A DNA stretch of 32,000 nt from Longivirga aurantiaca (GTDB taxonomy: Bacteria; Actinomycetota; Actinomycetes; S36-B12; CAIYMF01), in NCBI RefSeq assembly GCF_042660085.1, contig NZ_JBHSTI010000008.1, forward strand, positions 1,419,876 to 1,451,875, written 5' to 3'. Both the position numbers and the translations under genes were made by a program. The notes under the pieces are model-generated. The model did not search any database, was not told where the DNA came from, and saw only the letters and a list, made by a program, of their open reading frames with translations. Numbering within the stretch: the first letter of the stretch is position 1; every line of letters begins with the position of its first letter. This document shows, in pieces, positions 5,632 to 31,795 of this stretch.

Positions 5632-6237
5632 GTGGCTGTGAGCGACCCCCTGCCGGGGCCCGTGTTCGAGGTGCGGCACCGCTGGACGTACGTCGAGATG
5701 CTGCTGTCGAGCATCGCCTCGCTGGCCGCCGCGCTCGTGCTGTCGGTCGAGGCCTGGCTGCTGGCCAAGGACCCCGATGCGATCTTCTCGTGCGACGTCA
5801 ACAGCAAGATCTCCTGCGGCACGGTGGCCGAGTCGTGGCAGGCGACCCTGCTCGGATTCCCCAACGCCTACCTCGGCCTGATCTTCGAGTCGGTCGTCAT
5901 CACGATCGCGCTCGCGTCCCTGTCGGGCGTGCGCTTCCCGCGCCGGTTCATGCTGGGGGCGCACGCGCTGTACACGATCGCCATCGCCTTCGCCTACTGG
6001 CTGTTCCTGCAGGCCTACTTCGTGATCGGGTCGCTCTGCCCGTGGTGCCTGCTCGTGACGGTGGCGACCACGCTCGTCTTCACCTCGATCACCCGCGTGA
6101 ACATCCTCGACCGCACCATCACCTTCGGGCGGCACCAGGAGACGGTGGAGCGCTGGGTGCGGCTCGGCGCCGACACCGCCGTGGCGCTGCTGCTCATCGC
6201 TGTGATCGGGGCGATGGTGGCGTTCCGCTACCTGTGA
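5632..6237 (+). CDS. vitamin K epoxide reductase (VKOR) family membrane thiol oxidoreductase
   Basis: 201 aa. A GTG start is preceded by GGAGGA (5620-5625). Several predicted TM helices are present. A loop Cys pair lies in 'SCDVNSKISCG' and an intramembrane CXXC in 'LCPWCLL', which together match the VKOR four-Cys pattern. There is no fused thioredoxin domain. Confidence 0.8.
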   Translation: MAVSDPLPGPVFEVRHRWTYVEMLLSSIASLAAALVLSVEAWLLAKDPDAIFSCDVNSKISCGTVAESWQATLLGFPNAYLGLIFESVVITIALASLSGVRFPRRFMLGAHALYTIAIAFAYWLFLQAYFVIGSLCPWCLLVTVATTLVFTSITRVNILDRTITFGRHQETVERWVRLGADTAVALLLIAVIGAMVAFRYL

Positions 6238-6320
6238 GGCGTGCCGGCACCCGACCCGCGCTCGCAGCGCTCCGCCCGTAGACTGACGCGACCAGCGGTC
6301 GCAGCGTGCGAGGAGGTCGG

Positions 6321-12090: not shown

Positions 12091-12134
12091 CCGCCGGGCG
12101 TGTCGCCCGGCGGCCACGTCACAGTTTGGTGACG
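12091..12134 (+). promoter_or_regulatory. GC-rich hairpin plus adjacent palindrome in the leader of the MBL-hydrolase/hisS/aspS unit
   Basis: A perfect 10-bp stem CCGCCGGGCG-TGT-CGCCCGGCGG lies at 12091-12113, followed by the palindrome CGTCAC-agtttg-GTGACG at 12117-12134. A -10-like TAGGCT sits at 12081-12086 and the SD AGGAGGAG lies just before the GTG at 12160. Confidence 0.3.
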
Positions 12135-12159
12135 GGACCCGGCAGCAGGAGGAGAGCCC

Positions 12160-12879
12160 GTGCTCGTCGTCGGCTTCCCCGCCGGTCCCTGGGGAACCAA
12201 CTGCTGGGTGCTCGCGACCGGCAAGGGCGAGCAGTGCGTCGTCGTCGACCCGGGCAAGGACGCCGCCCCGGGTATCGAGGACGTCGTCCGCGAGCAGGGC
12301 CTGGAACCCGTCGCCGTGCTCCTCACCCACGGGCACATCGACCACGTGTGGTCGGTGGTCCCGGTCTGCGGTGCCCGCGGGATCCCGGCGTACATCCACC
12401 CCGACGACCGCTCGATGCTCGCCGACCCCCTGGCGGGCATCAGCGCGCAGACGGCGCAGATGCTGGCCTCCATGACCGAGGGGAAGCTCGCCGCGGGCGA
12501 GCCGGACGACGTCCGCCTGCTGACCGACGGCGCCGTCCTCGAGCTGGCCGGGCTCGAGCTGGTCGTCGACCACGCGCCGGGGCACACCCGGGGCTCGGTG
12601 ATGTTCCGGCAGGCCGCCGCCGAGGGCGTACCCCCGCTCCTGCTCTCCGGCGACGTCCTGTTCGAGGGCTCGATCGGCCGCACCGACCTCCCGGGCGGAG
12701 ACCACGAGGCGATGCTCGCCAGCCTCGCGCGCAAGGTGCTGCCCCTCGACGACGAGACCGTGGTGCTGCCCGGCCACGGCGGCACGACCACCATCGGCGA
12801 CGAGCGCGCCACCAACCCGTACCTCACGGCCCTGATCCGCCAGGGCTCGTCGACCGCTGCCCCCGGACGGGGGCTCTAG
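12160..12879 (+). CDS. MBL fold metallo-hydrolase (glyoxalase II-like)
   Basis: 239 aa with a GTG start. It has the metal-binding motif 'THGHIDH' and downstream His/Asp ligands ('HAPGHTRGS', '[14 protein letters not shown]', 'LPGHG'). Confidence 0.9.
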
Positions 12880-12885
12880 GACCTC

Positions 12886-14232
12886 ATGAGCCGCATCGCC
12901 CCCCTCTCCGGCTTCCCGGAGTGGCTGCCCGCCGAGCGCGTCGTGGAGCAGCAGGTGCTCGACACCGTGCGCCGCGTCTTCGAGCTGCACGGCTTCGCCT
13001 CGATCGAGACGCGCGCGGTGGAGCCCCTCGAGCAGATGCTGCGCAAGGGCGAGATCGACAAGGAGGTCTACGTCCTCCGCCGTCTGCACGCCGAGAGCGA
13101 CGAGGCCGACGCCGGGCTCGGCCTGCACTTCGACCTCACCGTGCCGTTCGCGCGCTACGTGCTGCAGAACGCCGGTCACCTGGAGTTCCCGTTCCGCCGC
13201 TACCAGATCCAGAAGGTGTGGCGGGGCGAGCGGCCGCAGGAGGGGCGCTTCCGCGAGTTCACTCAGGCCGACATCGACGTCATCGGCCGCGACACCCTCG
13301 CGTTCCACCACGAGGTCGAGGTCGCGCTCGTGATGGCCGAGGTGTTCCGCGCGCTCCCGTGCCCGCCCGCGGTCATCCTCGTGAACAACCGCAAGCTCGC
13401 GGAGGGCTTCTTCCTGGGCGCGGGCGCCACCGATGCTGCGGCGGCCCTCCGGGCGATCGACAAGCTCGACAAGATCGGCCCCGAGAAGGTGGCCGCGCTC
13501 CTCGAGTCGGACGCCGGCCTCACGGCCGAGGGCGCGCAGAAGTGCCTCGCCCTCGCCGGCATCCGCAGTGCCGACGTCTCGTTCGTCGCTCAGGTGCGCG
13601 CGCTCGGCGTCGAGCACGAGCTGCTCACCGAGGGGCTCGACGAGCTCGCCGCGGTGATCGCGGCGGCGTCCGCGCGGATGCCGGGCGCGGTGGTGGCCGA
13701 CCTCAAGATCGCGCGGGGCCTGGACTACTACACGGGCACGGTCTACGAGACCCAGCTCGTCGGGTACGAGTCGTTCGGCTCGGTCTGCTCGGGCGGCCGG
13801 TACGACTCGCTCGCGAGCGACGGCCGTACGACGTACCCGGGCGTCGGCATCTCGCTCGGCGTCTCGCGCCTGCTGTCGGTGCTCATCGGCCGCGGCCTGG
13901 TGACGGCCTCCCGCTCGGTGCCGACCGCCGTGCTCGTCGCCGTCTCCGACGACGACGCCCGCGGCACGTCCGAGGACGTCGCAGCGGCGCTGCGCGCCCG
14001 GGGCATCAGCACCGAGGTCGCGCCCAGCGCGGCCAAGTTCGGCAAGCAGATCCGCCACGCCGACCGTCGTGGCATCCCGTTCGTCTGGTTCGTCTCGGAC
14101 GACGGCACGCACTCGGTCAAGGACATCCGGTCGGGCGACCAGGTCGACGCCGACCCCACCAGCTGGACGCCGCCGGCGGAGGACCTCGTCCCCGTCGTTG
14201 CGCTGGCTCAGAACGAGGAGAGCACGTCGTGA
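12886..14232 (+). CDS. hisS: histidine--tRNA ligase
   Basis: 448 aa with class II aaRS motif 2 '[32 protein letters not shown]', 'GGRYD', and a C-terminal anticodon-binding domain. Confidence 0.96.
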
Positions 14233-16013
14233 TCCGCACGCACACCGCCGGAAGCCTTCGCGCGGAGCACGTCGGCCAGACCGTGACGCTGGCCGGCTGG
14301 GTCGCCCGCCGCCGCGACCACGGCGGCGTCGCCTTCCTCGACCTGCGCGACGCGTCCGGCGTCGTGCAGGTGGTCGTCCGCGATCCCGAGGTCGCGCACC
14401 CGTTGCGCAACGAGTTCTGCGTCAAGGTCGTCGGCGTGGTGTCGGCCCGGCCCGAGGGCAACGCCAACCTCGACCTGCCGACCGGCGAGGTCGAGGTCGT
14501 GACGAGCGAGCTCGAGGTGCTCTCGACGGCGGCGCCGCTGCCGTTCCCGATCGACGAGCACGTCGAGGTCGGCGAGGAGGCGCGCCTGCGCCACCGCTAC
14601 CTCGACCTCCGCCGTCCCGCGCCGGGCGCCGCCCTGCGTCTGCGCAGCCGCGTCAACCGCATCGCGCGCGACGTGCTCTACGACCACGACTTCATCGAGA
14701 TCGAGACCCCGACGCTGACCCGCTCGACCCCCGAGGGTGCGCGCGACTTCCTCGTGCCGGCCCGCCTGCAGCCGGGCACCTGGTACGCGCTGCCTCAGAG
14801 CCCGCAGCTGTTCAAGCAGCTGCTCATGGTGGCGGGCATGGAGCGCTACTTCCAGATCGCGCGCTGCTACCGCGACGAGGACTTCCGTGCCGACCGGCAG
14901 CCGGAGTTCACCCAGCTCGACATCGAGATGAGCTTCGTCGACCAGGACGACGTCATCGCGATCGGCGAGGCCGTCGTGTCGTCGGTGTGGCGCGAGATCG
15001 GCGTCGAGATCCCCACGCCCATCGCGCGGATGACGTACGCCGACTCGATGGCGCGCTACGGCAACGACAAGCCCGACCTGCGCTTCGGCAACGAGCTGGT
15101 CGAGTGCACCGACTACTTCGGCGGGACGACGTTCCGGGTCTTCCAGGCGCCGTACGTCGGCGCGGTCGTCATGCCGGGCGGGGCCTCGCAGCCGCGCAAG
15201 CAGCTCGACGCGTGGCAGGACTGGGCGAAGTCCCGCGGCGCGCGCGGCCTCGCGTACGTGCTGGTAGGCGAGGACGGCGAGCTCGGCGGCCCGGTCGCCA
15301 AGAACCTCAGCGACGCCGAGCGCGCGGGCCTGGCCGAGCGCGTCGGCGCCCAGCCCGGCGACTGCGTGTTCTTCGCGGCGGGGGAGACAACGCCGTCGCG
15401 GGCGCTCCTCGGCGCCGCGCGCCTGGAGATCGGCAAGCGCTGCGGCCTCATCGACGAGTCCGCGTGGGCGTTCGTGTGGATCGTCGACGCGCCGCTGTTC
15501 GAGCCGTCGTCCAAGGCGGTCGAGAGCGGCGACGTCGCCGTCGGTGCCGGCGCCTGGACCGCCGTGCACCACGCGTTCACCTCGCCCAAGCCCGAGTGGA
15601 TCGACCGGTTCGAGGAGAGCCCTGGGGAGGCGCTCGCCTACGCGTACGACATCGTGTGCAACGGCAACGAGATCGGCGGCGGCTCGATCCGTATCCACCG
15701 CAAGGACGTGCAGGAGCGCGTGTTCGCGATGATGGGCCTCGGGGCCGAGGAGCAGCAGGAGAAGTTCGGCTTCCTGCTCGACGCGTTCGCCTTCGGCCCC
15801 CCGCCGCACGGCGGCATCGCCTTCGGCTGGGACCGCATCGTGGCGCTGCTCTCGGGCAGCGACTCGATCCGCGACGTGATCGCGTTCCCCAAGACCGGTG
15901 GCGGTCAGGACCCGCTGACGGGCGCCCCGGCCGCGATCAGCGGCCAGCAGCGCGCCGAGGCCGGCGTCGACTTCGTCCCCGAGCCCGAGCCCTCGGAGCC
16001 CTCCGGGGCCTGA
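14229..16013 (+). CDS. aspS: aspartate--tRNA ligase
   Basis: The GTG at 14229 overlaps the hisS TGA (14230-14232). 594 aa with an OB-fold N-terminus ('[19 protein letters not shown]'), motif 2 '[25 protein letters not shown]', 'GGGSIRIH' and motif 3 '[17 protein letters not shown]'. It is the 3' part of ORF 12126..16013. Confidence 0.96.
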
Positions 16014-16024
16014 TCCGGGTCGCC

Positions 16025-16876
16025 TCAGTGGTGGTCGGGGCCGGCGACCGCCAGGGCGCCCGAGCTGCTGCCGCGGAGCCAGCGGAACCCCAGCGACGCG
16101 TAGACGCTGCGCGCCGCGTCGTTGTCGGCGTACATCCCGAGGCTGACCGCGGGCACGCCCGCGGCGAGCGAGTCGGCGGTGACCTCGGCGCACAGCAGCC
16201 GGGCGAGCCGCGTGCCGCGCCTCTCGGGGTGGGTGGCCACGCTGTTGAGGTGGTGGCTGCCCGACCGCTGACGCGTCACCGCGAGCACCGCCGCGAGCCC
16301 GCCCGTATCGGGCAGGCCGCGCTCGGGATCCTCGATCCCGGCCCAGCGCACCACGCGCGGGTCGCCGGCGGGGATCGACGCCGTGGGCGACGACACCTCG
16401 AGCAGGGCCGCGATGCGCGGGTCGCCGGCGTCCAGGTCGACCACCCGGGCGGCATCGCCGTACGGGGTGGACTGCGGAGCAGGCGGCACGAGGGTGCACC
16501 AGGCGTCCCACTCGTCGTGCTCGCGCGGCTGCAGGTGGTCGGGCAGCAGCGCGAGGCCGCCGCGCGGCACCGTGACCCCGGTGACCGGCTCGCCGATCCC
16601 GGTGCCGGCGTCCGCGAGACGCGTGAGCAGGGCGACGGCGGCGGCCACGTGCCCGGGGTCGAGCGGGTCGGCGGCGTACCCGCTCACCCAGCGGGCCCCG
16701 CGCCACGCGTGGTGGCTCACGACGGCCGCGGCTCGCCCGGGATCCGTGGCGATGCGCTGCAGGTGCCCGGGGTCGACGTCGAACCGGATCCAGAGGTCGC
16801 CCGGCAGTGCCTCCTCGAGCTCGGCGTGCAGGGCGCGCTGCCGGTCGTCGGGTGCGGGGCTCACCCCGTAACCCAA
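16025..16876 (-). CDS. GNAT family N-acetyltransferase (start uncertain: TTG at 16876 or GTG at 16864)
   Basis: The C-terminal GNAT core reads '[23 protein letters not shown]' and '[19 protein letters not shown]'. The upstream part of the 515-aa ORF overlaps rarA antisense and is not credible. The stop lies 11 nt from the aspS stop (convergent). Confidence 0.65.
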
Positions 16877-16900
16877 GCAGACCGCCGCCCGGCCACCGCC

Positions 16901-16913: not shown

Positions 16914-18311
16914 GTGACCGCGAGCCTGTTCGACGACGGTGCGGCGCCGACCCGCGTCGGAGCCCCGCTCGCCGTCCGCATGCGCCCGCGCACCCTGGAG
17001 GAGCTGGTCGGCCAGCGGCACCTGCTCGAGCCCGGGAGCCCCCTGCGCAGGCTGGTGGCCGACCCCGGGTCGGGCCGCGCCGGCATCACGAGCGTGATCC
17101 TCTGGGGGCCGCCCGGCACCGGCAAGACCACCCTCGCCTCGCTCGTGAGCACGAGCACGGGACGCCGCTTCGTCGAGCTCTCGGCCGTGACGGCCGGCGT
17201 GAAGGACGTCCGCGAGGTGGTCGACCGCGCCCGCGACGCCCTCGGCATGCAGGGGCAGGGCACGGTGCTGTTCGTCGACGAGGTGCACCGCTTCTCCAAG
17301 ACCCAGCAGGACGCGCTCCTCCCGGCGGTCGAGAACGGCTGGGTCACGCTCGTCGCCGCAACCACCGAGAACCCGTCGTTCTCGGTGATCTCCCCGCTGC
17401 TCTCGCGCTCGCTCGTGCTCACCCTGGCCTCGCTGACCGACGACGACCTCCGCGACCTGCTGCGCCGTGCCGTCTCCGACCCCCGCGGCCTCGACGGCAC
17501 GGTGGAGCTCAGCGAGGAGGCGGAGGAGCACCTGCTGCGCGTGGCGGGCGGCGACGCCCGGCGCGCGCTCACCAGCCTGGAGGCCGCCGCCGGTGCTGCC
17601 CTCGACGCCGGGACGAACGTCGTCGACCTCGCCGCGGTCGAGCGGGCCGTGGCCCATGCGGCACCGCGCTACGACCGCGACGGCGACCAGCACTACGACG
17701 TGATCAGCGCGTTCATCAAGAGCTGCCGCGGGTCCGACGTCGACGCCGCCCTGCACTACCTGGCCCGGATGCTCGAGGCGGGGGAGGACCCCCGCTTCAT
17801 CGCGCGCCGCCTGATCATCCTGGCGAGCGAGGACGTCGGCATGGCCGACCCGACCGCGCTGCAGACCGCGGTGGCGGCGGCGAACGCCGTGCAGCTGATC
17901 GGCCTCCCCGAGGGCAGGCTCACGCTGGCCCAGGCGACGGTGGCGATCGCGCTGGCGCCCAAGTCGAACGCCGTCACCGTGGCGATCGGCGAGGCCGAGG
18001 CAGACGTGCGCCGCGGGCTCATCGGACCGGTACCGGCCCACCTGCGCGACAGCCACTACGCCCGCGCCTCCGACCTCGGCCACGGTGTGGGCTACGTCTA
18101 CCCGCACGACGTGCCCGGGGGAGTGGCCGAGCAGCAGTACGCCCCCGACCAGGCCACGGGCCGCCGCTACTACGTGCCGACCCGTCATGGCGCCGAGGCG
18201 CGGTACGCCGACGTCCTGGACCGCCTGCGGGTGGCGCTGGGCCGTGAGGCCCCGCCGGTAGGGTCGGACGACGCGTCGACCGGCGACGCGACAGGTGGCA
18301 GCGAGGGGTGA
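16914..18311 (+). CDS. rarA: replication-associated recombination protein A (AAA+ ATPase RarA/MgsA)
   Basis: 465 aa with Walker A '[11 protein letters not shown]', Walker B '[10 protein letters not shown]', and the MgsA C-terminal domain ('[28 protein letters not shown]', '[18 protein letters not shown]'). Confidence 0.95.
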
Positions 18312-22904: not shown

Positions 22905-23750
22905 ATGTCGGCTGGACGCAGGCGGGCGGCGGTGCTGGGGCACCCGGTCGCCCACTCGCTCTCCCCGGTGCTGCACCGGGCCGCGTACTCCGCCCTCGGG
23001 CTCGACTGGGACTACGGCCTGCACGACGTCACCGAGGACGGCCTCGCCGGCTTCGTGGCAGCCCTGGACGACTCCTGGGCGGGGTTCTCGCTCACGATGC
23101 CGCTCAAGGAGGCCGTGATCCCGCTGCTGGACGACGTCGACCTCGTCGCCCTCGCCACGGGCGCGGTCAACACCGTCGTGCTCGACCGGGACGGCCGGCA
23201 CGGCTGGAACACCGACGTGCACGGGATCGTGGCCGCTCTGGACGAGCAGGGGGCCGCAGCCTCGACCGGCGCCGTGCTCGGCGCCGGGGCCACCGCCCGT
23301 TCGGCGGTCGCCGCCCTTGCCCGCCGCGGCACGACCGACGTCGTCCTGGTCGCGCGCCGGCCCGAGGCCGCTGCGGCGGTCCTCGCCACCGCGCTGCAGG
23401 TCGGCGTGGCCGTGGAGGTGCTCGGCTGGGACTCGGTGCCGGACGCGCTCGAGGCCGACTGCGTGGTGTCGACAGTGCCGACCGGGGTCGTCGACCCGTT
23501 CGCGCCGGGCGTGACCGCCGCCGGTGGCCCTCGAGGCTGCCTGCTCGACGTCGTCTACGACCCCTGGCCCACCCCGCTGGCAGCCGCCTGGGCCGCCGCG
23601 GGCGGCAGCGTGGCGTCGGGCCTCGACATGCTCCTGCACCAGGCCGTGCGCCAGGTCGAGCTCATGACCGGGCTGACCCCGCCCATCGAGGCGATGCGGT
23701 CAGCGCTGGCAGCAGCGGCCGCTGCTCGAGGGGCCTCCGGAGCGGGCTGA
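22905..23750 (+). CDS. aroE: shikimate dehydrogenase
   Basis: ATG at 22905. 281 aa with 'AAVLGHPVAHSLSPVLHRAAY', 'FSLTMPLKEAV', 'GAVNTVV' and the NAD(P)-binding 'VLGAGATARSA'. Confidence 0.9.
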   Translation: MSAGRRRAAVLGHPVAHSLSPVLHRAAYSALGLDWDYGLHDVTEDGLAGFVAALDDSWAGFSLTMPLKEAVIPLLDDVDLVALATGAVNTVVLDRDGRHGWNTDVHGIVAALDEQGAAASTGAVLGAGATARSAVAALARRGTTDVVLVARRPEAAAAVLATALQVGVAVEVLGWDSVPDALEADCVVSTVPTGVVDPFAPGVTAAGGPRGCLLDVVYDPWPTPLAAAWAAAGGSVASGLDMLLHQAVRQVELMTGLTPPIEAMRSALAAAAAARGASGAG

Positions 23751-23853
23751 GCGAGGGCAGAAGCGCCGCGGGGCTCAAGCCGGGCCTCCCAGGCGCCGAA
23801 AGCATGCTCGGAGGGTCATCTGACCTCCGTCCTGCGACTCGTCGAGGTGTCCC

Positions 23854-24432
23854 ATGTCCGGCCAGCTCCCCTCCACCGGTCGCGCGGCCCGACTCGATCG
23901 TGCGCTCGCCGACCTCCTGGCCCAGGCTCCCGAGCTCGAGGCGGCCGCCGTGGTGTCCTTCGACGGGCTCGCGATGGCCTCGCGGCTGCCGTCCGGCATG
24001 GACGAGGACCGCGTGGCGGCGATGAGCGCCGCGCTCCTCAGCCTCGGCGAGAAGGCCGCGCAGGGCCTCGGTCGCGGCGACCTCTCCCAGGTGTACGTCG
24101 AGGGCGAGTCCGGCACCGTCTTCCTGATCTCCGCCGACGACGAGGCAGTCCTGGTCGCCGTCGCCGCAGCCGGCGCCAAGGCCGGGCTCATGCTCTACGA
24201 GGTCCGCCGCGCCGCGTCCGCCGTCGGCCAGGTGCTGCGCGAGGCCGCCCCCGTCGTCGCCGAGCCGACCGTGGACGAGCAGGCGCTGGCCGAGGCGGAG
24301 GCCGCGTACGAGGCCTACCGCGCCTCGCAGGCGGTGGCGCCCATGGTCGACGCACCCCCTGCCCCGGACCCGGTCCCCGCGTGGGACCCCTACGCCACCG
24401 AGCCCGTCTCCTCCGTCCGATCCTGGTCCTGA
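23854..24432 (+). CDS. Roadblock/LC7 (MglB/CvnB-like) domain protein with a C-terminal Pro/Ala/Glu-rich extension
   Basis: 192 aa. An ATG is preceded by GAGGTG. Residues ~15-130 ('LDRALADLLAQAPELEAAAVVSFDGLAMASRLP...VYVEGESGTVFLISADDEAVLVAVAAAGAKAGLMLYEVRRAA') have the alternating pattern typical of Roadblock/LC7 proteins. This is a recognition-level call without HMM confirmation. Confidence 0.75.
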   Translation: MSGQLPSTGRAARLDRALADLLAQAPELEAAAVVSFDGLAMASRLPSGMDEDRVAAMSAALLSLGEKAAQGLGRGDLSQVYVEGESGTVFLISADDEAVLVAVAAAGAKAGLMLYEVRRAASAVGQVLREAAPVVAEPTVDEQALAEAEAAYEAYRASQAVAPMVDAPPAPDPVPAWDPYATEPVSSVRSWS

Positions 24433-24467
24433 CCGGTTCCCACCACCACTGAAGGAGGGGCGCACCC

Positions 24468-25742
24468 GTGAAGCTCGAGGGCTCCCTCGACGCGTTCGGT
24501 CTCCCTGACGTCGTCACGCTGCTCGCGACGACCGGCAAGACCGGCGGTCTGCTGCTGCGCCGGACGGGCGACGACCGAACCATGACCGAGGGTGCGGTCT
24601 GGTTCCGTGACGGCCGCGTGTGCGGTGCGACGTCGGACCGGTCGCGCGCGTCCCTGGTACGCCGGGTGGTGGGCTCCGGCGCCGTGGACGACAACGCCCT
24701 GCGCCAGGCCGTCTCGCGAGCCGTGTCCGCTGGTGGGGGAGTGGCACGTGCCCTCCTCGAGTCGGGATCGGTCGACCCCGACCTCCTGCGCCAGGCCGCG
24801 GACGACCAGACCGTGGATGCCGTCTTCGACCTCCTGCGCTGGAGCGCGGGCGACTTCGCCTTCGACCCGGGCGCCTCCGACCCCGACGACATCGGGCTGG
24901 CCGTCGAGCACGGGCGGGTGCTGGCCGAGGCCCGCGCCCGTGTCGAGGCCTGGGCCTCGCTCATCGTGGTCATCCCCAGCGTGGACTCCGTGCTGACCGT
25001 GCCCACGGTGCTCGGCCACGACCCCGAGGTGTCGCGCGACGAGTGGGCGCTGCTGTCCCTCGTGGACGGGCACCGCCGTGTCGGCGACCTGGTGGAGCTC
25101 ACCGGGGCGGGCGAGTTCGCCGTCACCACCATCCTGGCCCGCCTGGCCCAGCGCGGGCTCCTGCACGTGAAGGACGCCGCGGCCCCCGACCACGTCGCCA
25201 TCGTGGAGCGCCGGCTCGGCATGCTCGCCTCGATCGAAGGGTCCTCGCCCGCGGTGCCCGAGGCGCCGCAGCAGCAGCAGCCCGTGGCCGTCGAGGAGCC
25301 TGTCGCCGGGCCCGGCGCCCAGGGCATGTCTGCGGCCGCTGCCCTCGCCGCAGCCCGTGCGGCACAGGGACTCCCGCAGTCCGGCAACCCCGGATCCGGG
25401 GCGAAGAGGACACCGCGGCACGAGGTCGTGCCGCCACGTCCGGAGCCCTTCCTGCCCGGACGACGCCCTGAGCACCCGGAGCCCGCTCCCGAGCGTGTCG
25501 CCGGTGCCTCGGCGCACCGCGCTACCCCGGCCTACTCCGCGCCGGCGTCTCCCGTGGGTGTCCCGTTCCCCGGCTCGATCGGCAGCCGCGCGGGCTCGGT
25601 CGAGGGAGCGACCGCCCGGTCGCTGGCCGATCCGGATCAGCTCCCGGCCCCGGACCCGCGGCACGACTCCACCATCGAGCGCGACCCCGCGATGAACCGC
25701 AGCCTGCTGCTGCGCCTCATCGCCGGCGTGAGGGGGCTCTGA
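24468..25742 (+). CDS. DUF4388 (PATAN) domain protein with a winged-helix-like middle segment and a long disordered C-terminal half
   Basis: 424 aa. The GTG at 24468 lies 7 nt after GAAGGAGGGG. The N-terminus 'MKLEGSLDAFGLPDVVTLLATTGKTGGLLL' is the DUF4388 signature. It also has 'EWALLSLVDGHRRVGDLVELTGAGEFAVTTILARLAQRGLLHV', then a Pro-rich tail ending in 'MNRSLLLRLIAGVRGL'. Confidence 0.75.
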   Translation: MKLEGSLDAFGLPDVVTLLATTGKTGGLLLRRTGDDRTMTEGAVWFRDGRVCGATSDRSRASLVRRVVGSGAVDDNALRQAVSRAVSAGGGVARALLESGSVDPDLLRQAADDQTVDAVFDLLRWSAGDFAFDPGASDPDDIGLAVEHGRVLAEARARVEAWASLIVVIPSVDSVLTVPTVLGHDPEVSRDEWALLSLVDGHRRVGDLVELTGAGEFAVTTILARLAQRGLLHVKDAAAPDHVAIVERRLGMLASIEGSSPAVPEAPQQQQPVAVEEPVAGPGAQGMSAAAALAAARAAQGLPQSGNPGSGAKRTPRHEVVPPRPEPFLPGRRPEHPEPAPERVAGASAHRATPAYSAPASPVGVPFPGSIGSRAGSVEGATARSLADPDQLPAPDPRHDSTIERDPAMNRSLLLRLIAGVRGL

Positions 25743-26317
25743 TGGCAGCGCGCAAGCACCGCCGACAGGGCGGCCAGGCCGTGAAGATCGTGGTCACCGG
25801 TCCGTTCGCGGCGGGCAAGACGACACTGATCCGCACGATCAGCGAGATCACGGTGCTCTCGACCGAGCGCGGCATCACCGACGACACCCGCACCCGCAAG
25901 CCCGAGACGACCGTGGCGATGGACTTCGGGCGCATCACGATCGACCGCGATCTGGTGCTCTACCTGTTCGGCACGCCCGGCCAGGAGCGCTTCGACTTCA
26001 TGTGGGAGATCCTCGGCGAGGGGATGCTCGGCTACGTCCTGCTCGTCGACGCGGACCGCCCCGAGACCCTCGGCGAGGCAGCAGGGATCCTGGCCGCCTT
26101 CCGCCGGATGGCGCACGTCCCCTTCGTCGTGGCGCTCAACCGCAGCGCCGAGGTCGACCCCCGGGCCGAGGATCTGGTCCGCGAGGCGCTCGAGCTGAGC
26201 CCGGGCACCCCGGTCGTCCCGTGCGACGCCACGGACAAGGACTCGGTCAAGGGCGTCCTGCTCGCGCTGCTCTACAGCGTGCTCGACGACATCGAAGCGA
26301 CCGCGGCCCACGCGTAG
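25742..26317 (+). CDS. small Ras-like P-loop GTPase, CvnD/MglA-like ('ATP/GTP-binding protein')
   Basis: The ATG at 25742 overlaps the upstream TGA (TGATG). 191 aa with G1 'GPFAAGKTT', switch I 'ETTVAMDFG' and G3 'LFGTPGQERF' (no Asp). Where NKxD is expected it reads 'ALNRSA'. It closely resembles my recollection of Streptomyces conservon CvnD proteins ('TTVAMDFGRI...LYLFGTPGQ.RF.FMW'). Confidence 0.8.
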   Translation: MAARKHRRQGGQAVKIVVTGPFAAGKTTLIRTISEITVLSTERGITDDTRTRKPETTVAMDFGRITIDRDLVLYLFGTPGQERFDFMWEILGEGMLGYVLLVDADRPETLGEAAGILAAFRRMAHVPFVVALNRSAEVDPRAEDLVREALELSPGTPVVPCDATDKDSVKGVLLALLYSVLDDIEATAAHA

Positions 26318-26326
26318 GAGGAGCCG

Positions 26327-26629
26327 ATGCGCCTGCTGCGATGGTCCCGTCGCCGTACCGAACCGGTCGGCCGGCATTCGCGCGTCCTGACGGGCATCAG
26401 CATGACGGGCGCCGCGGCGAGCCTCGTGAGCTCCACGGTCACCGCGGAGTCGGTCGTGGCCGAGGCCGAGGAGGTGGCCGCGTCCTCACGCTCGGTGACC
26501 GCCACGGGCGAGCCGGCGGTGACGCTGGGGTTCGCCGACGGCGCGAGCGTGGCGCTGGAGGCCGACGACCCTCGTGTGCGCACCTTCCGGGCGGCCGCGG
26601 CCGCCCTGCTCGACGCCCCGCGCCCCTGA
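26327..26629 (+). CDS. hypothetical 100-aa protein (no recognisable domain)
   Basis: The ATG follows the SD AGGAGGAG (26316-26323), which overlaps the GTPase stop. Third-codon-position GC is very high (~90% by eye), consistent with genuine coding sequence. The gap from the GTPase gene is 9 nt. Confidence 0.55.
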   Translation: MRLLRWSRRRTEPVGRHSRVLTGISMTGAAASLVSSTVTAESVVAEAEEVAASSRSVTATGEPAVTLGFADGASVALEADDPRVRTFRAAAAALLDAPRP

Positions 26630-26756
26630 CGCGTCCGGCCCCGTCCGCCGTCCGGGCTACAGACGACCGCTCGCTGTGCCGAACAGGTGAAGGGGAGCCT
26701 GGTGCTCCCGCGAGACCCGGCCGCCGCCGGGGACGTCCGAGCCGGGAGAACGCATC

Positions 26757-28421
26757 GTGAAGCAGCTGGGGGACATCCTCCTCGAGGGCGGCCTGGTCAC
26801 CCACGACCAGCTGGCCGTCGCCGTTGACGAGCAGAACCGGCTCGGTCGCAGCCTCGGGCGGGTGCTCGTGGACCGCGGCGTGCTCACCGAGGCCCAGCTC
26901 GTCGCCTCCCTGGCCGCGCAGATCGGCATGCGCTTCGTCGATCTCGGCGACATCCAGATCGACGGATCCGCGCTCGGCCGCGTGCCGGGCCACGTCGCCC
27001 GTCGCCACACCGCGATCCCGATCGGCTACGACGAGGGCAAGCTCGTCGTCGCCATGGCCGACCCGGCGAACGTGTTCGCGATCGACGACATCCGCTCCGC
27101 CGCGGGCATCGACGTCAAGCCCGTCGTGGCCACCCGCAACGACGTGGCGGCAGCCATCGACCGCTTCTACCGCGCTGGCGACGAGCTGAACGACCTGACC
27201 TCCGAGCTGGACACGGGGGAGGACGAGGAGGACCTGTCCAAGGTCAAGGAGATCACCGAGGACGCGCCGATCGTCCGCTACGTGAACCTGCTGATCACCC
27301 AGGCGATCCAGGACCGGGCCTCGGACATCCACCTCGAGCCGACCGAGCACGACCTGCGCGTGCGCTACCGCATCGACGGCGTGCTCCACGAGGTCATGCG
27401 CTCCCCGCGCGCGATCCAGTCGGGCGTGATCAGCCGCCTGAAGATCATGGCGGACATCAACATCGCCGAGCGCCGCATCCCGCAGGACGGCCGACTGTCG
27501 GTCGCTGCGCACGGCAAGAAGGTCGATCTCCGCGTGGCCACGCTCCCGACGGTCTGGGGCGAGAAGGTCGTCATGCGAATCCTGGACAACTCCACGGCGC
27601 GCATGGACCTCTCCGACCTCGGCTTCAGCCCGCACAACTTCGGCATCTTCGAGAAGTCGTACGTGAAGCCCTACGGCATGATCCTGGTGACAGGACCGAC
27701 CGGGTCCGGCAAGTCGACCACGCTGTACGCCACGCTCAACGTGGTCAACAAGCCCGAGGTCAACATCATCACGGTCGAGGACCCGGTCGAGTACCGGCTC
27801 CCTGGCGTGAACCAGGTGCAGGTCAACAACAAGGCCGGCCTGAACTTCGCCGCAGCCCTGCGCTCGATCCTCCGCTCGGACCCCGACATCGTCCTCATCG
27901 GTGAGATCCGCGACCACGAGACGGCGCAGATCGCCGTCGAGGCCTCGCTCACCGGTCACCTCGTGCTCTCGACCCTGCACACGAACGACGCGCCGAGCGC
28001 GATCACGCGCCTCACCGAGATGGGCATCGAGCCCTTCCTGGTGGGCTCCGCCATGGACGTCGTGCTGGCCCAGCGCCTCGCTCGCCGGCTGTGCTCGAAG
28101 TGCAAGGAGCCGTTCGAGCCGGACGCCGAGCAGCTCGCAGCCATCCGGTTCAAGCCGTACCCCGGTGATCCGGAGCCGCACTTCTACCGCCCCGTGGGGT
28201 GCGCCAACTGCGCGAAGACCGGTTACAAGGGTCGCGTCGCGATCCACGAGGTCATGGCGATCAGCGACGAGATCGAGCGCCTGACCGTCGACCGCGCGTC
28301 CTCGACGCGCATCGGCGAGGTCGCGATCGAGCAGGGGATGCGCACGCTCCGCGAGGACGGCCTGCTCAAGGCCTCCCAGGGCATCACGACGATCGACGAG
28401 GTCTTCCGCGTCGTCGCCTGA
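26757..28421 (+). CDS. pilB: type IV pilus assembly ATPase PilB (GspE family) with an MshEN/T2SSE_N N-terminal domain
   Basis: 554 aa with a GTG start. It has Walker A 'GPTGSGKSTT', Asp box 'NIITVEDPVEY', Walker B 'DPDIVLIGEIRD', His box 'GHLVLSTLHTND' and a tetra-Cys zinc motif 'CSKC...CANC'. The N-terminus carries two MshEN-type motifs. Confidence 0.93.
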   Translation: MKQLGDILLEGGLVTHDQLAVAVDEQNRLGRSLGRVLVDRGVLTEAQLVASLAAQIGMRFVDLGDIQIDGSALGRVPGHVARRHTAIPIGYDEGKLVVAMADPANVFAIDDIRSAAGIDVKPVVATRNDVAAAIDRFYRAGDELNDLTSELDTGEDEEDLSKVKEITEDAPIVRYVNLLITQAIQDRASDIHLEPTEHDLRVRYRIDGVLHEVMRSPRAIQSGVISRLKIMADINIAERRIPQDGRLSVAAHGKKVDLRVATLPTVWGEKVVMRILDNSTARMDLSDLGFSPHNFGIFEKSYVKPYGMILVTGPTGSGKSTTLYATLNVVNKPEVNIITVEDPVEYRLPGVNQVQVNNKAGLNFAAALRSILRSDPDIVLIGEIRDHETAQIAVEASLTGHLVLSTLHTNDAPSAITRLTEMGIEPFLVGSAMDVVLAQRLARRLCSKCKEPFEPDAEQLAAIRFKPYPGDPEPHFYRPVGCANCAKTGYKGRVAIHEVMAISDEIERLTVDRASSTRIGEVAIEQGMRTLREDGLLKASQGITTIDEVFRVVA

Positions 28422-28552
28422 GCACGTGCACGCGCGGTGACGGGGACGACTCGGCCGAGCGGGTGGTCCGAAGGCTCAAGCAGGGCTCTCGGACGGCCGA
28501 TGGTCAGCAAGGACGCCGGCACTAGGGGTGCCGGCCCGAACGAGGAGTGGCC

Positions 28553-29884
28553 GTGGAGTCCATGCCGTACGCCGGGCAGCAGTCCGTGCCACCGGTCGCC
28601 TCGCCCTATCCGTCGGGCGCGGTCCCGGCGGGTTACCCGGCCGCCCCGGTGGCCAGCGCCGCCCCGGTCGCCGCACCCATGCCGGTCTCGGCACCGATGC
28701 CGGTCGCCCCGGCCCCGGAGCCCACGGTCCTGGAGCACAACCCGCTGAACGAGCACGGCACCGGTGTCCCGCAGGTCGTCCCGACCCGTCAGGGCACCGA
28801 GCAGACGGTGCGCGAGGACGACTTCAGCCTCGTCGACGCGCTGCTCATGATGCTCGACCGCGGCGCGTCCGACCTGCACCTCACCTCCGGCGCCCGGCCG
28901 ACCATCCGCGTGAGCGGGTCGCTGGTGCCCATCGACGAGTTCGACGTCCTCACGCCCCCGGTGCTCCAGCGCGTCATCTACTCCGTGCTCACCCAGCACC
29001 AGCGGTTGAAGTTCGAGGAGGAGCTGGAGCTGGACTTCGCGTACTCGCTGCCGGGCCGGGCCCGCTTCCGCGTGAACATCTACAAGCAGCGCGACAGCCT
29101 CGGTGCGGCCTTCCGCATCATCCCGTTCGAGATCAAGAGCCTGGAGAGCCTCGGCGTCCCGCCGTCGGTTTCGAACTTCGCCAGCCTGCCGCGCGGCTTC
29201 GTCCTCGTGACCGGTCCCACCGGCTCCGGCAAGTCCACGACGCTCGCCGCGCTGGTCGACCTGGCCAACCGCACGCGGCACGACCACATCATGACCGTCG
29301 AGGACCCCATCGAGTTCCTCCACCGGCACAAGAGCTGCATCATCAACCAGCGCGAGGTGGGCGAGGACACCTGGTCGTTCGCCAACGCGCTCAAGCACGT
29401 CCTGCGCCAGGACCCCGACATCATCCTCGTCGGCGAGATGCGCGACCTCGAGACGATCTCGGTCGCGCTCACCGCCGCCGAGACCGGCCACCTCGTGTTC
29501 GCGACGCTGCACACGCAGGACGCGGCCCAGACCATCGACCGCGTCATCGACGTCTTCCCGCCCCATCAGCAGCAGCAGGTGCGCCAGCAGCTCGCGATGT
29601 CGCTCCAGGGCGTCGTCTGCCAGACCCTCTGCAAGACCGCCGACGGGCACGGCCGGGTCGTCGCGACCGAGGTCCTCGTGGTCACGCCGGCCGTGCGGAA
29701 CCTCATCCGTGAGGGGAAGACGCACCAGATCTACTCCGTCATGCAGGCGGGCGCGCAGTTCGGCATGCACACGCTCGACCAGCACCTCGCCGAGCTCGTC
29801 CGTACCCGCCGGGTCACGTACGAGCACGGTGTGGAGAAGTGCCACCACATCGAGGACTTCAACCGGCTCGTCGGCCGGGCCTGA
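28553..29884 (+). CDS. pilT: type IV pilus retraction (twitching motility) ATPase PilT with a Pro/Ala-rich N-terminal extension
   Basis: In-frame starts occur at GTG 28547, GTG 28553 and ATG 28562. The SD GAGGAG (28542-28547) favours 28553. It has Walker A 'GPTGSGKSTT', 'IMTVEDPIEF', 'DPDIILVGEMRD', 'GHLVFATLHT' and the PilT signature 'AVRNLIREGK'. Confidence 0.92.
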   Translation: MESMPYAGQQSVPPVASPYPSGAVPAGYPAAPVASAAPVAAPMPVSAPMPVAPAPEPTVLEHNPLNEHGTGVPQVVPTRQGTEQTVREDDFSLVDALLMMLDRGASDLHLTSGARPTIRVSGSLVPIDEFDVLTPPVLQRVIYSVLTQHQRLKFEEELELDFAYSLPGRARFRVNIYKQRDSLGAAFRIIPFEIKSLESLGVPPSVSNFASLPRGFVLVTGPTGSGKSTTLAALVDLANRTRHDHIMTVEDPIEFLHRHKSCIINQREVGEDTWSFANALKHVLRQDPDIILVGEMRDLETISVALTAAETGHLVFATLHTQDAAQTIDRVIDVFPPHQQQQVRQQLAMSLQGVVCQTLCKTADGHGRVVATEVLVVTPAVRNLIREGKTHQIYSVMQAGAQFGMHTLDQHLAELVRTRRVTYEHGVEKCHHIEDFNRLVGRA

Positions 29885-29907
29885 GCGGCGAGGAGAGGCA
29901 TCCAGCC

Positions 29908-31137
29908 ATGGCAGCTACAGCGACCTTCCAGTACGCGGTCCGCGACAAGCAGGGCAAGGTCGTCACCGGCAAGATCGAGGCCGACTCACCGGCCCAGGTG
30001 GCGTCCAAGCTGAAGAGCATGGGCTACGCGCCCATGAAGATCAGCCAGGTCGACGGCGGCGGTCTCAAGAAGGAGATCTCGCTGCCGCGGCTGGGCAGCA
30101 AGGTCAAGCTCAAGGAGATCGCGATCTTCTCGCGCCAGTTCGCGACGATGATCAACTCCGGGCTCTCCATGCTGCGCGCGCTCTCGATCCTCGAGGAGCA
30201 GCAGCCCAACAAGGTGTTCGCCCAGGTGATCGGGGAGATCCGGTCCGAGGTCGAGAGCGGCTCGGCGCTGTCGACGTCCATGTCGAAGCACCCGGACGTC
30301 TTCGCGCCGCTCATGATCAACATGATCAAGGCCGGCGAGGTCGGCGGCTTCCTCGACAGCGTGCTGAACCAGCTCGCCGAGAACTACGAGGCCGAGGTCA
30401 AGCTCCGCGGCAAGGTGAAGTCGGCCATGACCTACCCGGTCGCCGTGCTCGTCATGGCGATCCTGCTCACGGTCGGCATGCTGCTGTTCGTGGTCCCGAC
30501 GTTCGCGAAGCTGTTCTCGGACCTCGGTGGCGAGCTGCCGGCGCCCACCCAGATGCTCGTGAGCCTGTCGAACTTCCTCAAGGTCGGGATCGTCCCGATC
30601 GTGATCCTGTCGGTCATCGGCTTCGTGGTCTGGGTGCGGGTGAAGAACACGGACCGCGTGCGCGAGTTCATCGACCCGCTCAAGCTCAAGATGCCGGTCT
30701 TCGGCGGCCTGTTCCAGAAGATCGCGCTCGCGCGCTTCTGCCGCAACCTCGGCACGATGCTGCACTCCGGCGTCCCGATCCTGCAGTCGCTGGACATCGT
30801 GGCCGACACCTCGGGCAACAAGGTCATCACCCACGCCGTCCACGACATCGAGGAGAGCGTGCGTCGCGGTGAGAGCCTCACCCAGCCGCTGTCGACCCAT
30901 GCGGTCTTCCCGGCCATGGTGGTGCAGATGCTGGCGGTCGGCGAGGACACGGGCGCCCTCGACTCCATGCTCGCCAAGATCGCGGACTTCTACGACGCCG
31001 AGGTCGAGGCGACCACCGAGCAGATGACGGCGCTCATCGAGCCGCTCATGATCGCCGTGCTCGGCGGGATCGTGGGGTCGATGATCATCGCCCTGTACAT
31101 GCCGATCTTCAAGATCTTCGACCTCATCGGCGGCTAG
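29908..31137 (+). CDS. pilC: type IV pilus platform protein PilC (type II secretion system F family)
   Basis: The ATG at 29908 lies 9 nt after AGGAGAGG. 409 aa with two internally duplicated T2SSF domains ('FSRQFATMINSGLSMLRAL' and 'FCRNLGTMLHSGVPILQSL') and three TM segments. The ORF track starts it at 29839. Confidence 0.93.
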   Translation: MAATATFQYAVRDKQGKVVTGKIEADSPAQVASKLKSMGYAPMKISQVDGGGLKKEISLPRLGSKVKLKEIAIFSRQFATMINSGLSMLRALSILEEQQPNKVFAQVIGEIRSEVESGSALSTSMSKHPDVFAPLMINMIKAGEVGGFLDSVLNQLAENYEAEVKLRGKVKSAMTYPVAVLVMAILLTVGMLLFVVPTFAKLFSDLGGELPAPTQMLVSLSNFLKVGIVPIVILSVIGFVVWVRVKNTDRVREFIDPLKLKMPVFGGLFQKIALARFCRNLGTMLHSGVPILQSLDIVADTSGNKVITHAVHDIEESVRRGESLTQPLSTHAVFPAMVVQMLAVGEDTGALDSMLAKIADFYDAEVEATTEQMTALIEPLMIAVLGGIVGSMIIALYMPIFKIFDLIGG

Positions 31138-31381: not shown

Positions 31382-31795
31382 GTGCTCTCTCGCATGCGTA
31401 AGCAGGACGCCGACCAGGGCTTCACCCTGATCGAGCTGCTCGTCGTCATGATCATCATCGGCATCCTCGCGGCCATCGCCATCCCCACGTTCCTCAACCA
31501 GCGGAACAACGGCTACCGCACCGCCATCAAGTCCGACCTGAAGAACGCGGCGATCGCGGCCGAGTCCTTCGCCACCGACAACGGCGGCGACTACTCCGGC
31601 CTCACCGACGCCACTCTGGCCGACGCACGCGGCACCGGCGTCACCGCCGAGGTCACCGTCGCCGTCGCCTGGGCGACCGGCACCGCGTACTGCGTCGAGG
31701 GGGTGCACTCGGCCCTCACCACCGCGCCGACGCAGTTCTTCTACAGCAGCCTCGAAGGAGCCCCGCTCGAGGGCGCCTGCCCGGCCGCTCCGTGA
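31382..31795 (+). CDS. pilA: type IVa major pilin (prepilin-type N-terminal cleavage/methylation domain)
   Basis: The GTG at 31382 lies 5 nt after GGGAAGGAA (alternative ATG at 31394). The class III signal peptide is 'MLSRMRKQDADQG|FTLIELLVVMIIIGILAAIAIP' with Gly-1, Phe+1 and Glu+5. A C-terminal Cys pair lies in 'YCVEG...EGAC'. 137 aa. Confidence 0.92.
   Translation: MLSRMRKQDADQGFTLIELLVVMIIIGILAAIAIPTFLNQRNNGYRTAIKSDLKNAAIAAESFATDNGGDYSGLTDATLADARGTGVTAEVTVAVAWATGTAYCVEGVHSALTTAPTQFFYSSLEGAPLEGACPAAP

Follow-up and report, generated by a model that had tools for sequence, protein, structure and literature searches.

The window analyzed here, a 32,000-nucleotide (nt) stretch of the genome of Longivirga aurantiaca (Sporichthyales, Actinomycetota; contig NZ_JBHSTI010000008.1), a 74% G+C actinobacterium, contains four open reading frames (ORFs) on the + strand at 23854-26629, followed by the gene for the pilus ATPase PilB. 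Together the four encode an MglA-Group-5-type module of Roadblock, PATAN, small GTPase and small accessory proteins, and across a large actinobacterial clade this module is the conserved 5' section of the type IVa pilus (T4aP) cluster. It is reasonably probable that the module regulates the T4aP machine, and the more specific route from the PATAN protein to PilB is put forward tentatively, by analogy with cyanobacterial PATAN domains. The reality of the genes, their families and order, the linkage to pilB in both directions, the persistence of PATAN genes beside pilB and the separateness of the module from conservons were computed directly.

An original prediction, made from the DNA letters without database searches, had described four closely packed same-strand ORFs, and the ORF list reproduced their coordinates, gaps and shared TGATG exactly. 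ORF1 (192 amino acids (aa), 23854-24432) encodes a Roadblock/LC7 protein of the MglB/CvnB-like kind, and 35 nt separate it from ORF2 (424 aa, 24468-25742), which encodes a PATAN (DUF4388) protein with a winged helix. ORF2 overlaps by 1 nt with ORF3 (191 aa, 25742-26317), an MglA-family small GTPase of the Group 2-5 type, the stop codon of the one and the start codon of the other sharing the TGATG at 25740-25744. After a further 9 nt comes ORF4 (100 aa, 26327-26629), a small conserved accessory protein with no Pfam family, and pilB (26757-28421) begins 127 nt beyond it. The start codon is GTG in ORF2 and ATG in the other three, and there are GGAGG/GAGGGG Shine-Dalgarno-like strings ahead of ORF2, ORF3 and ORF4. 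All four genes, the 100-aa ORF4 among them, were also called independently in Logan assemblies of this organism. The GTPase and PATAN proteins match NCBI proteins of L. aurantiaca at 100% identity. Upstream of the module are alaS, ruvX, mltG and aroE, themselves preceded by ordinary housekeeping genes.

Profile hidden Markov model (HMM) searches agreed with the predicted families of the first three proteins. ORF1 matched PF03259 (Robl_LC7, E = 1.7e-18, residues 18-103, with a core of about 18-128) and ORF2 matched PF14332 (DUF4388/PatA_N, E = 1.1e-20, 74.4 bits against a cut-off of 25, residues 4-162). ORF3, predicted to be a GTPase lacking the Asp of the G3 motif, matched PF03029 (ATP_bind_1, E = 1.9e-18, 67.6 bits, cut-off 27) and came just below the cut-off of TIGR00231 (small_GTP, E = 1.1e-10, 41.5 bits, cut-off 42.5).

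The conservation of the set was followed in a scan anchored on the GTPase, with one genome per GTDB species. This gave 80 loci, 33 from Chloroflexota and 47 from Actinomycetota, the latter comprising Frankiales, Nanopelagicales, Acidothermaceae, metagenome-assembled genomes (MAGs) of 'Mycobacteriales', and one member of the Nitriliruptorales, which belong to a different class. The actinobacterial gene order was nearly invariant: alaS-ruvX-mltG-aroE-Roadblock-PATAN-GTPase-(ORF4)-pilB-pilT-pilC-pilins. The PATAN gene was directly 5' of the GTPase gene in 47 of 47 Actinomycetota loci, the Roadblock gene was upstream of it in all 46 that had enough upstream sequence, and a same-strand pilB was downstream in 38 of the 39 informative loci, less than 700 nt away in 23. 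The Nitriliruptorales genome was among those with the linkage to pilB, and two Acidothermaceae loci (L013 and L033) had the order Roadblock-PATAN-GTPase-pilB, ending 15-28 nt before pilB. Such recurrence, in 47 actinobacterial genomes at species level, far exceeds chance.

The link to pilus genes also outlived a rearrangement. In two Frankiales MAGs the module followed uvrC-rapZ-cofD-whiA rather than aroE, and in the one whose contig continues (L018) pilB was still downstream, so the association with pilB persisted where the association with aroE was broken. In six loci (L017, L018, L022, L025, L032 and L037) the distance between ORF4 and pilB was 2-9.5 kb (for example L022:10878-19943 and L037:10960-12789). 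The inserted genes encoded a sugar transferase, GT2 and GT4 glycosyltransferases, a flippase, an aminotransferase and Wzy_C O-antigen-ligase-like proteins. The pilin O-glycosyltransferases PilO/TfpO and PglL carry a Wzy_C domain, and for this reason the inserts are possibly pilin-glycosylation islands.

The converse scan, anchored on PilB, covered 80 metagenome loci with PilB at 72-90% identity. A GTPase gene was seen upstream in 53 of the 80, and in three loci ORF4 alone was visible at the contig edge. Several reduced arrangements were found: aroE-PATAN-GTPase with no Roadblock gene (three loci); a 360-aa Roadblock-domain protein and a 290-aa PATAN protein with no GTPase (two loci, L164 [6043-8004] and L165); PATAN only between aroE and pilB (three loci, L167 [6849-7772], L168 and L171); and aroE leading straight to pilB with no module (four loci, L134, L151, L157 and L158). 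Nothing recognizable was present in the 0.6-5.6 kb of upstream sequence of about ten loci. In L164 and L165 the PATAN stop codon overlaps the pilB start by 4 nt, and in decayed modules generally the PATAN gene is the part left attached to pilB. The co-occurrence with pilB that the original prediction had proposed for neighborhood analysis was therefore seen from both anchors. In the plasmid collection, the sole actinobacterial PilB match was a distant locus on a Miltoncostaea plasmid (41% identity) with no module, too few to count.

Some of the long-read MAGs (L003, L008, L019, L024, L026, L042 and L091) had split PATAN, pilB, pilT or pilC genes, probably due to frameshift errors rather than pseudogene formation. 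One such split left a PATAN gene called as a 223-aa fragment with no Pfam match (L091:9330-10001).

The sequence motifs of ORF3 place it within a described branch of the MglA family. Its G1 to G5 motifs are GPFAAGKT, ETTVAMDFG, GTPGQ, LNRS (LNRSAE) and CDAT. The G3 region LFGTPGQERF (residues 75-84) was invariant in 13 homologs and has Thr in place of the canonical Asp; in the same set T56 and T57 of G2 were invariant, and there is no intrinsic arginine finger, a Thr being in its place. The combination of GTPGQ with Thr for the switch-I arginine finger is that of MglA Groups 2-5 (Wuichet & Søgaard-Andersen 2015, PMC4316618), and ORF3 showed all three of the Group 2-5 features examined, namely a single-domain P-loop GTPase, GTPGQ, and absence of the arginine finger. 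The G4 motif is without the guanine-specificity Asp; the actinobacterial orthologs have N[RK]xx, also without Asp, and the Chloroflexota relatives have NKQD. ORF3 is extremely conserved, the best 120 database clusters being 81-100% identical to it. Its AlphaFold2 (AF2) model, built on a 13-sequence alignment of 81-100% identical proteins, had a mean predicted local distance difference test (pLDDT) score of 51.6, with the N-terminal half below 50, too low for the model to be used.

The same three families in the same order have been catalogued before; the original prediction knew of no experimental description of this exact architecture. Table S2 of PMC4316618 lists MglB>PATAN>MglA as MglA Group 5 in Hydrogenobacter, Persephonella, Sulfurihydrogenibium, Thermocrinis, Aquifex and Roseiflexus RS-1, with variants in Cyanobacteria and Deinococcus-Thermus, and includes Acidothermus cellulolyticus Acel_1323. 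The paper states that Group 1 and Group 5 genes occasionally adjoin PATAN genes and cites Makarova et al. 2006 for MglB-PATAN neighborhoods, but the pilus context is absent: pilus genes are not named next to Group 5 systems anywhere in its text or supplement, and 'pilB' occurs 0 times in the supplement. The Acidothermus entry and the module in the window are the same family, since the Acidothermaceae loci carry Roadblock-PATAN-GTPase and then pilB. In the window, as in many members of Group 5, a coupled Roadblock gene and an adjacent PATAN gene are arranged as MglB>PATAN>MglA, and the GTPase has GTPGQ and Thr for the switch-I arginine finger. The window set differs in its LNRSAE at G4, where the paper gives Group 5 a canonical [NT]KxD motif (the Acidothermus ortholog was nonetheless filed in that group), in its fourth conserved gene, and in its fixed position at the head of a T4aP cluster, where the paper describes variable neighborhoods.

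Placement in Group 5 was also supported by a neighbor-joining tree of 32 taxa, calculated from a hand-written distance with 100 bootstraps and rooted on a Ralstonia Group 3 protein; sampling was limited, with four CvnD proteins, the GTPases of conservons. The actinobacterial pilus-linked GTPases grouped with the Chloroflexota PATAN-linked GTPases in 84 of 100 replicates and with CvnD in 2, CvnD forming the next branch out at 64. Mean identity was 56% to the Chloroflexota PATAN-linked GTPases and 41% to CvnD. We know of no member of MglA Group 5 that has been studied experimentally.

Group 1, which includes the MglA and MglB proteins of Myxococcus xanthus and Thermus thermophilus, likewise couples a Roadblock protein with a Ras-like small GTPase. 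Myxococcus MglA acts via SgmX to stimulate the formation of T4aP at the leading pole, and SofG positions PilB and PilT. Unlike ORF3, Group 1 proteins have an intrinsic arginine finger and TVPGQ, and no MglA structure was among the PDB sequence matches to ORF3 at E ≤ 0.01. The Myxococcus mglBA genes, unlike those of the window, lie apart from the pil genes and share their operon with no PATAN gene.

The Roadblock protein has the Asp-Gly pair (SFDG) that has been noted for the MglB partners of MglA Groups 2-5, and it scored 16.1 bits against the MglB equivalog NF052242, for which the cut-off is 200. In a sequence search the closest solved structures were 7f8m (E = 2.7e-21), cvnB5 (3leq, E = 1.4e-9) and Rv3364c (9hef). 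Its tail (residues ~130-192, 24240-24432) is variable, of low complexity and rich in Ala and Pro, and ends in a conserved W-S-COOH. A C-terminal xxW(S/T/A) is kept in about 40 actinobacterial Roadblock orthologs, with a second motif, W...YAP(S/T)GS, further upstream; the Roadblock partners in Chloroflexota are without this tail.

ORF4 had no family match in the profile searches, and the original prediction called it an orphan. It is instead a conserved small protein family, with 66 database homologs, and in 31 related GTDB loci a member, 57 to 417 aa long, lies directly 3' of the GTPase gene. An N-terminal basic motif, RLLxWxxR..P.GRHSRVLP..VPGAAAxLV, is followed by a variable linker and a C-terminal unit, VTLGFADGASVxLxxDDPRVRTFRAAAAALL, which is sometimes present in two or three tandem copies.

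ORF2 has the two hallmarks of PATAN domains, an N-terminal LxGxLxxFxLxD signature and an alpha-helical insertion. In the AF2 model, for which pLDDT was above 90 across residues 1-235, the beta-core is broken by helices at 62-123, and a winged helix-turn-helix-like domain follows (residues ~185-235, 25020-25172; helices 190-198, 205-212 and 216-228, strand 233-235). There was no Response_reg match in the Pfam search that would indicate a receiver domain, and the C-terminal half consists of the winged helix and a disordered linker. Two conserved peptide motifs lie in this linker, ALAAARAAQGL and EVVPPRPEPFLPGRRPEHPE (residues 319-338, 25422-25481). In an alignment of 35 homologs, columns V320-R332 of the latter were nearly invariant with non-alignable sequence on either side, and pLDDT in this part of the linker was ~46-54. 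The protein ends in IERDPxxNRSLLLRLIAGVRGL-COOH (residues 403-424, 25674-25739), which was invariant in the 35 homologs and which AF2 models as a helix at 407-418. The Chloroflexota PATAN partners have a related C-terminal motif, (S/T)(L/V)(I/V)NRLIxRIRS(L/I)-COOH.

Two possible roles of this C-terminal helix were considered. The helix is also retained in the GTPase-less, pilB-adjacent variants, and its interpretation as a GTPase-binding element is weakened, since it survives in loci that have no GTPase gene. As to a MinD/FtsA-like amphipathic membrane anchor, the hydrophobic moment of the window peptide (0.36) was no better than that of shuffled sequences, a fraction of 0.41 of which reached it.

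The proposed connection to the pilus motor comes from cyanobacteria. Work on Synechocystis showed that PixE binds both the N-terminal half of PilB1 and the PilC N-terminal domain through its PATAN domain, which by itself can reverse phototaxis; PATAN-GspE_N fusions and MglA/MglB neighborhoods are noted by the same authors (bioRxiv 10.1101/2021.06.11.447907). Like ORF2, the PatA-type regulators PixG, PixE, LsiR and PilG have a PATAN domain with an alpha-helical insertion, and there PATAN is the output that binds PilB1/PilC. In contrast, these regulators take their input through a receiver domain, which chemosensory or photoreceptor systems feed, whereas ORF2 lacks a receiver domain, has a winged helix, long linker and C-terminal helix instead, and presumably takes its input from the adjacent GTPase. 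Both the comparative genomics above and this published binding support the earlier idea of a nucleotide switch linked to the pilus operon.

By analogy with these systems, the GTPase would be the switch, cycling between nucleotide states, and the Roadblock protein would be the GTPase-activating protein (GAP) that speeds hydrolysis, as MglB is for MglA and MfpD for MfpB. The overlapping stop and start codons would keep the PATAN protein in fixed proportion to the GTPase through translational coupling. The PATAN protein may serve as a motor-proximal adaptor that, as in Synechocystis, contacts PilC and/or the N-terminal part of PilB (the presumed module target), and this contact would turn pilus extension on or off, or place it. 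Further docking contacts could come from ORF4 and from the short motifs conserved in the disordered Roadblock and PATAN tails. These contacts between proteins, the activity of the Roadblock protein as a GAP and the influence on pili are all inferred from better studied relatives.

A possible structural basis for such docking was found in the alpha-helical insertion (ORF2 residues 62-114, 24651-24809). Foldseek matched it to the GSPII-B domain of PilF (8pdk_A, prob 0.98, root-mean-square deviation (rmsd) 1.4 Å over 52 columns) and to the N-terminus of X. citri PilB (7lkm_B, prob 0.95, 29% identity), in both cases with E of about 1; over the matches to Thermus PilF and Xanthomonas PilB, rmsd was 1.4-1.8 Å and identity 23-29%. 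The insertion is laid out as two 24-residue repeats with a 5-residue spacer, as in MshEN, the motif of which consists of two RLGxxhhxxGhhxxxxLxxxLxxQ units with this spacing (PMC5013675). The insertion retains the hydrophobic pattern and the second Gln, but has SLV and GVA in the 'RLG' positions and Ala for the first Gln; in the repeats of the PilB in the window, the first residue is Gln or Ser, not Arg. Reciprocal HMM matches were below threshold (DUF4388 on PilB residues 30-58, E = 0.0074; NF053729 on the ORF2 insertion, E = 0.13), and hhalign aligned the insertion with PilB residues 10-56 without significance.

As a lead only, since the database E-values are not significant, the modeled PATAN insertion appears to resemble a degenerate MshEN/GSPII module for cyclic di-GMP (c-di-GMP). 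If the likeness is real, PATAN proteins bear a copy of the N-terminal module of PilB, which would suggest docking, mimicry or a c-di-GMP link, the last of which fits the GGDEF and HD-GYP neighbors in Chloroflexota and Deinococcus. The beta-core itself gave Foldseek matches to chains of the SEA and GATOR1 complexes (8adl_S, prob 0.99; 9v0j_B, prob 0.92), which we take to carry longin/roadblock-type GTPase-regulator folds. One speculative and rather improbable extension is that PATAN is a longin/roadblock-like fold with an inserted degenerate MshEN copy, and that Group 5 GTPases use it to dock onto, or compete with, the N-terminal domain of PilB in a general coupling of GTPases to pilus motors across Actinomycetota, Cyanobacteria and other phyla. 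If this were true, the actinobacterial operon, including the PATAN gene alone translationally coupled to pilB, would be the most explicit genomic record of such coupling.

Several observations weigh against regulation of the pilus by the module. No pilus genes were found within 10 kb of the 33 Chloroflexota loci, which contain the closest GTPase relatives outside the phylum. The alaS-ruvX-mltG-aroE housekeeping genes are as well conserved beside the module as pilB is, which makes synteny alone weak evidence. The module is common but dispensable for the pilus cluster, as indicated by the four loci in which aroE leads to pilB and the approximately ten with nothing recognizable upstream. Co-transcription with pilB is unproven, the 127-nt gap between ORF4 and pilB having no callable promoter or terminator; a scan of 23600-26900 called none and is uninformative at 74% G+C. 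Finally, the nucleotide used by ORF3 is uncertain because the guanine-specificity Asp of G4 is missing.

Alternatively, the module could be a general cytoplasmic signaling or polarity unit, linked for example to c-di-GMP, with no specific role in pili, and its position before pilB could be inherited gene order. In Chloroflexota, a PATAN gene (about 275 aa) was directly 5' of the GTPase gene in 31 of 33 loci, the GTPase being about 60% identical to that of the window, and a Roadblock gene adjoined the pair in only two. Downstream of PATAN-GTPase at L055:9083-20536 and 23 other Chloroflexota loci were genes for an alpha/beta hydrolase, a hexapeptide transferase, a REC-GGDEF protein and a histidine kinase of more than 2,200 aa with about ten GAF domains. 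Deinococcus plasmids carried a PATAN-like protein with a GTPase and a Roadblock gene, in one case amid GGDEF, HD and HD-GYP genes. Neither the Chloroflexota nor the Deinococcus relatives adjoin pilus genes.

Such surroundings, the equally syntenic housekeeping genes, the pilB loci without a module, and a 127-nt gap that permits separate transcription are all compatible with a general unit. However, the module is upstream of pilB even where the block of genes upstream of it is different, as in L018, and in 38 of 39 genomes no inserted island had displaced it elsewhere. Furthermore, it is the PATAN gene, abutting or overlapping pilB, that remains after partial loss, and PATAN domains are experimentally tied to PilB1/PilC (bioRxiv 10.1101/2021.06.11.447907). 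A general unit with no specific pilus role is therefore considered unlikely.

Regulation of the pilus motor was also weighed against regulation of pilus transcription, in which the PATAN protein would be a GTPase-controlled DNA-binding regulator with its winged helix on the pil promoter region. The winged helix-turn-helix after the PATAN domain was modeled with confidence, and the module immediately precedes the operon, from which 127 nt of intergenic sequence separate it; conservon systems, moreover, are known to alter gene expression. Nevertheless, the HMM matches of the winged helix were weak (MarR_2/HTH_47, E ~0.015, far below the family thresholds, with PF12802 recorded on some homologs), and the Foldseek matches of the ORF2 model to CRP and MarR-type regulators had prob of only 0.06-0.23. 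The long disordered linker with its peptide motifs and the C-terminal helix look like a scaffold rather than a classical repressor, the known outputs of PATAN domains are protein-protein contacts at the membrane, and the Chloroflexota homologs keep the same domain set with no pil operon nearby. A transcriptional role in place of a motor role is improbable on this evidence.

The original prediction had read the module as a conservon without its kinase and with DUF742 replaced by a PATAN protein. True conservons, as retrieved here from Streptomyces and Kitasatospora plasmids, encode CvnA, a Roadblock protein, DUF742 and a GTPase. The two systems are from the same phylum and share the order Roadblock (CvnB) first and GTPase (CvnD) last with a small or medium winged-helix protein (CvnC) between. 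ORF1 is a CvnB-type Roadblock protein by its PF03259, cvnB5 and Rv3364c matches. ORF3 is 37-49% identical to the CvnD GTPases and has in common with them GTPGQ, a degenerate, non-canonical G4 and a DA(T/R) G5. Functionally the best analogy is the Mfp conservon, in which the Roadblock protein MfpD is the GAP of the conservon GTPase and the CvnC homolog MfpC is the likely guanine nucleotide exchange factor.

The two also differ in several respects. There is no CvnA at the head of the operon and no kinase in the 47 Actinomycetota loci, where alaS, ruvX, mltG and aroE are upstream, nor was a CvnA-type kinase-like gene found beside the PATAN-GTPase pairs in the Chloroflexota or Deinococcus loci examined. 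ORF3 is without the CvnD-type G4 (NxF or NxFD) and G5 (DAR) motifs, having LNRS and CDAT where a Streptomyces conservon has VNGFY and CDAR, and it is phylogenetically nearer to the Chloroflexota PATAN-linked GTPases. Conservon output is secondary metabolism or gyrase protection, whereas the context in the window is a pilus motor.

DUF742 (PF05331) did not match the winged-helix segment of ORF2 at E ≤ 10, while a true CvnC scored 3e-35. With hhalign, ORF2 aligned to one CvnC at E = 0.15 and to four CvnC/DUF742 proteins at E = 0.017, in the winged helix only. Homology of ORF2 to DUF742 was rejected on these grounds, the alignment being a hint only, by which the PATAN protein may contain a CvnC-like half. 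The CvnC proteins (L081:4634-4993, L085:2083-2448, L086:2046-2459 and L087:2089-2472) consist of a winged helix and then a short LLxxVxxGLxxL terminal helix, a layout that resembles the winged helix and LLLRLIAGVRGL-COOH end of ORF2.

Descent from a conservon that lost CvnA, exchanged DUF742 for PATAN and was then fused to a pilus operon has in its favor the gene order, the GTPase and Roadblock similarities and the weak winged-helix alignment, and is nonetheless very improbable, given the tree, the absence of a DUF742 match in the winged-helix segment, the presence of PATAN-GTPase(-MglB) sets in Chloroflexota, Deinococcota, Aquificae and Cyanobacteria, which have no conservons, and the filing of the Acidothermus ortholog in Group 5 rather than in the conservon Group 2. 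The bootstrap values of 84 and 2, together with the PATAN-GTPase pairs without CvnA in Chloroflexota and Deinococcus, indicate that the module is, as far as GTPase phylogeny can tell, an older, separate and more widespread lineage to which conservons are a sister group.

The genes downstream of the module make up a T4aP cluster, with PilB, PilT, PilC and a prepilin encoded together on the + strand. PilB, the extension ATPase, matched T2SSE (E = 7e-144) and MshEN (E = 7.5e-23), and its 664.7 bits against TIGR02538 were 11 bits short of the equivalog cut-off. Its residues 3-55 (26763-26921), the region of the MshE-type c-di-GMP motif, matched NF053729 (59 bits, cut-off 38). PilB is followed by the retraction ATPase PilT (28547-29884; TIGR01420, 485 bits, cut-off 319), the platform protein PilC (29839-31137; two T2SSF domains, E = 2.3e-66, and PilC NCBIfam models at ~430 bits) and a type IV prepilin (31382-31795; N_methyl, E = 1.9e-9, and TIGR02532). 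The true start of PilC is probably downstream of the start of the longest ORF.

Elsewhere in the window, a caller based on G+C at third codon positions (GC3) gave no convincing gene at 14300-16900, between hisS (12886-14232) and a MgsA/RarA-like gene (16914-18311). A 944-aa + strand ORF in this interval is Arg-rich, has low GC3 and no Pfam match, and is probably spurious; the real gene is possibly in the frame of the ORF at 12126-16013.

Full-text literature searches, whose coverage largely excluded subscription journals, returned no paper on the triad and pili in Actinobacteria. The triad itself was catalogued in 2015; new, as far as searched, are its tight link to T4aP genes, the fourth conserved gene, the Asp-less G4, the conserved terminal peptide motifs and the reduced variants.

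To our knowledge, almost nothing has been reported on how monoderm (Gram-positive-type) bacteria regulate their type IV pili, and studies of PATAN domains outside cyanobacteria are scarce. The locus described here gathers all of the suspected partners, Roadblock, PATAN, GTPase and PilB/PilT/PilC, in one conserved cluster, and natural variants from which the GTPase, the Roadblock protein or all of the module is missing make the function of PATAN proteins and Group 5 GTPases directly testable. It is no surprise in kind, but is the clearest genomic handle so far on both protein families. The clade that carries it includes abundant freshwater and soil Nanopelagicales, Frankiales and Acidothermaceae, in which a pilus switch would bear on adhesion, DNA uptake and surface behavior.

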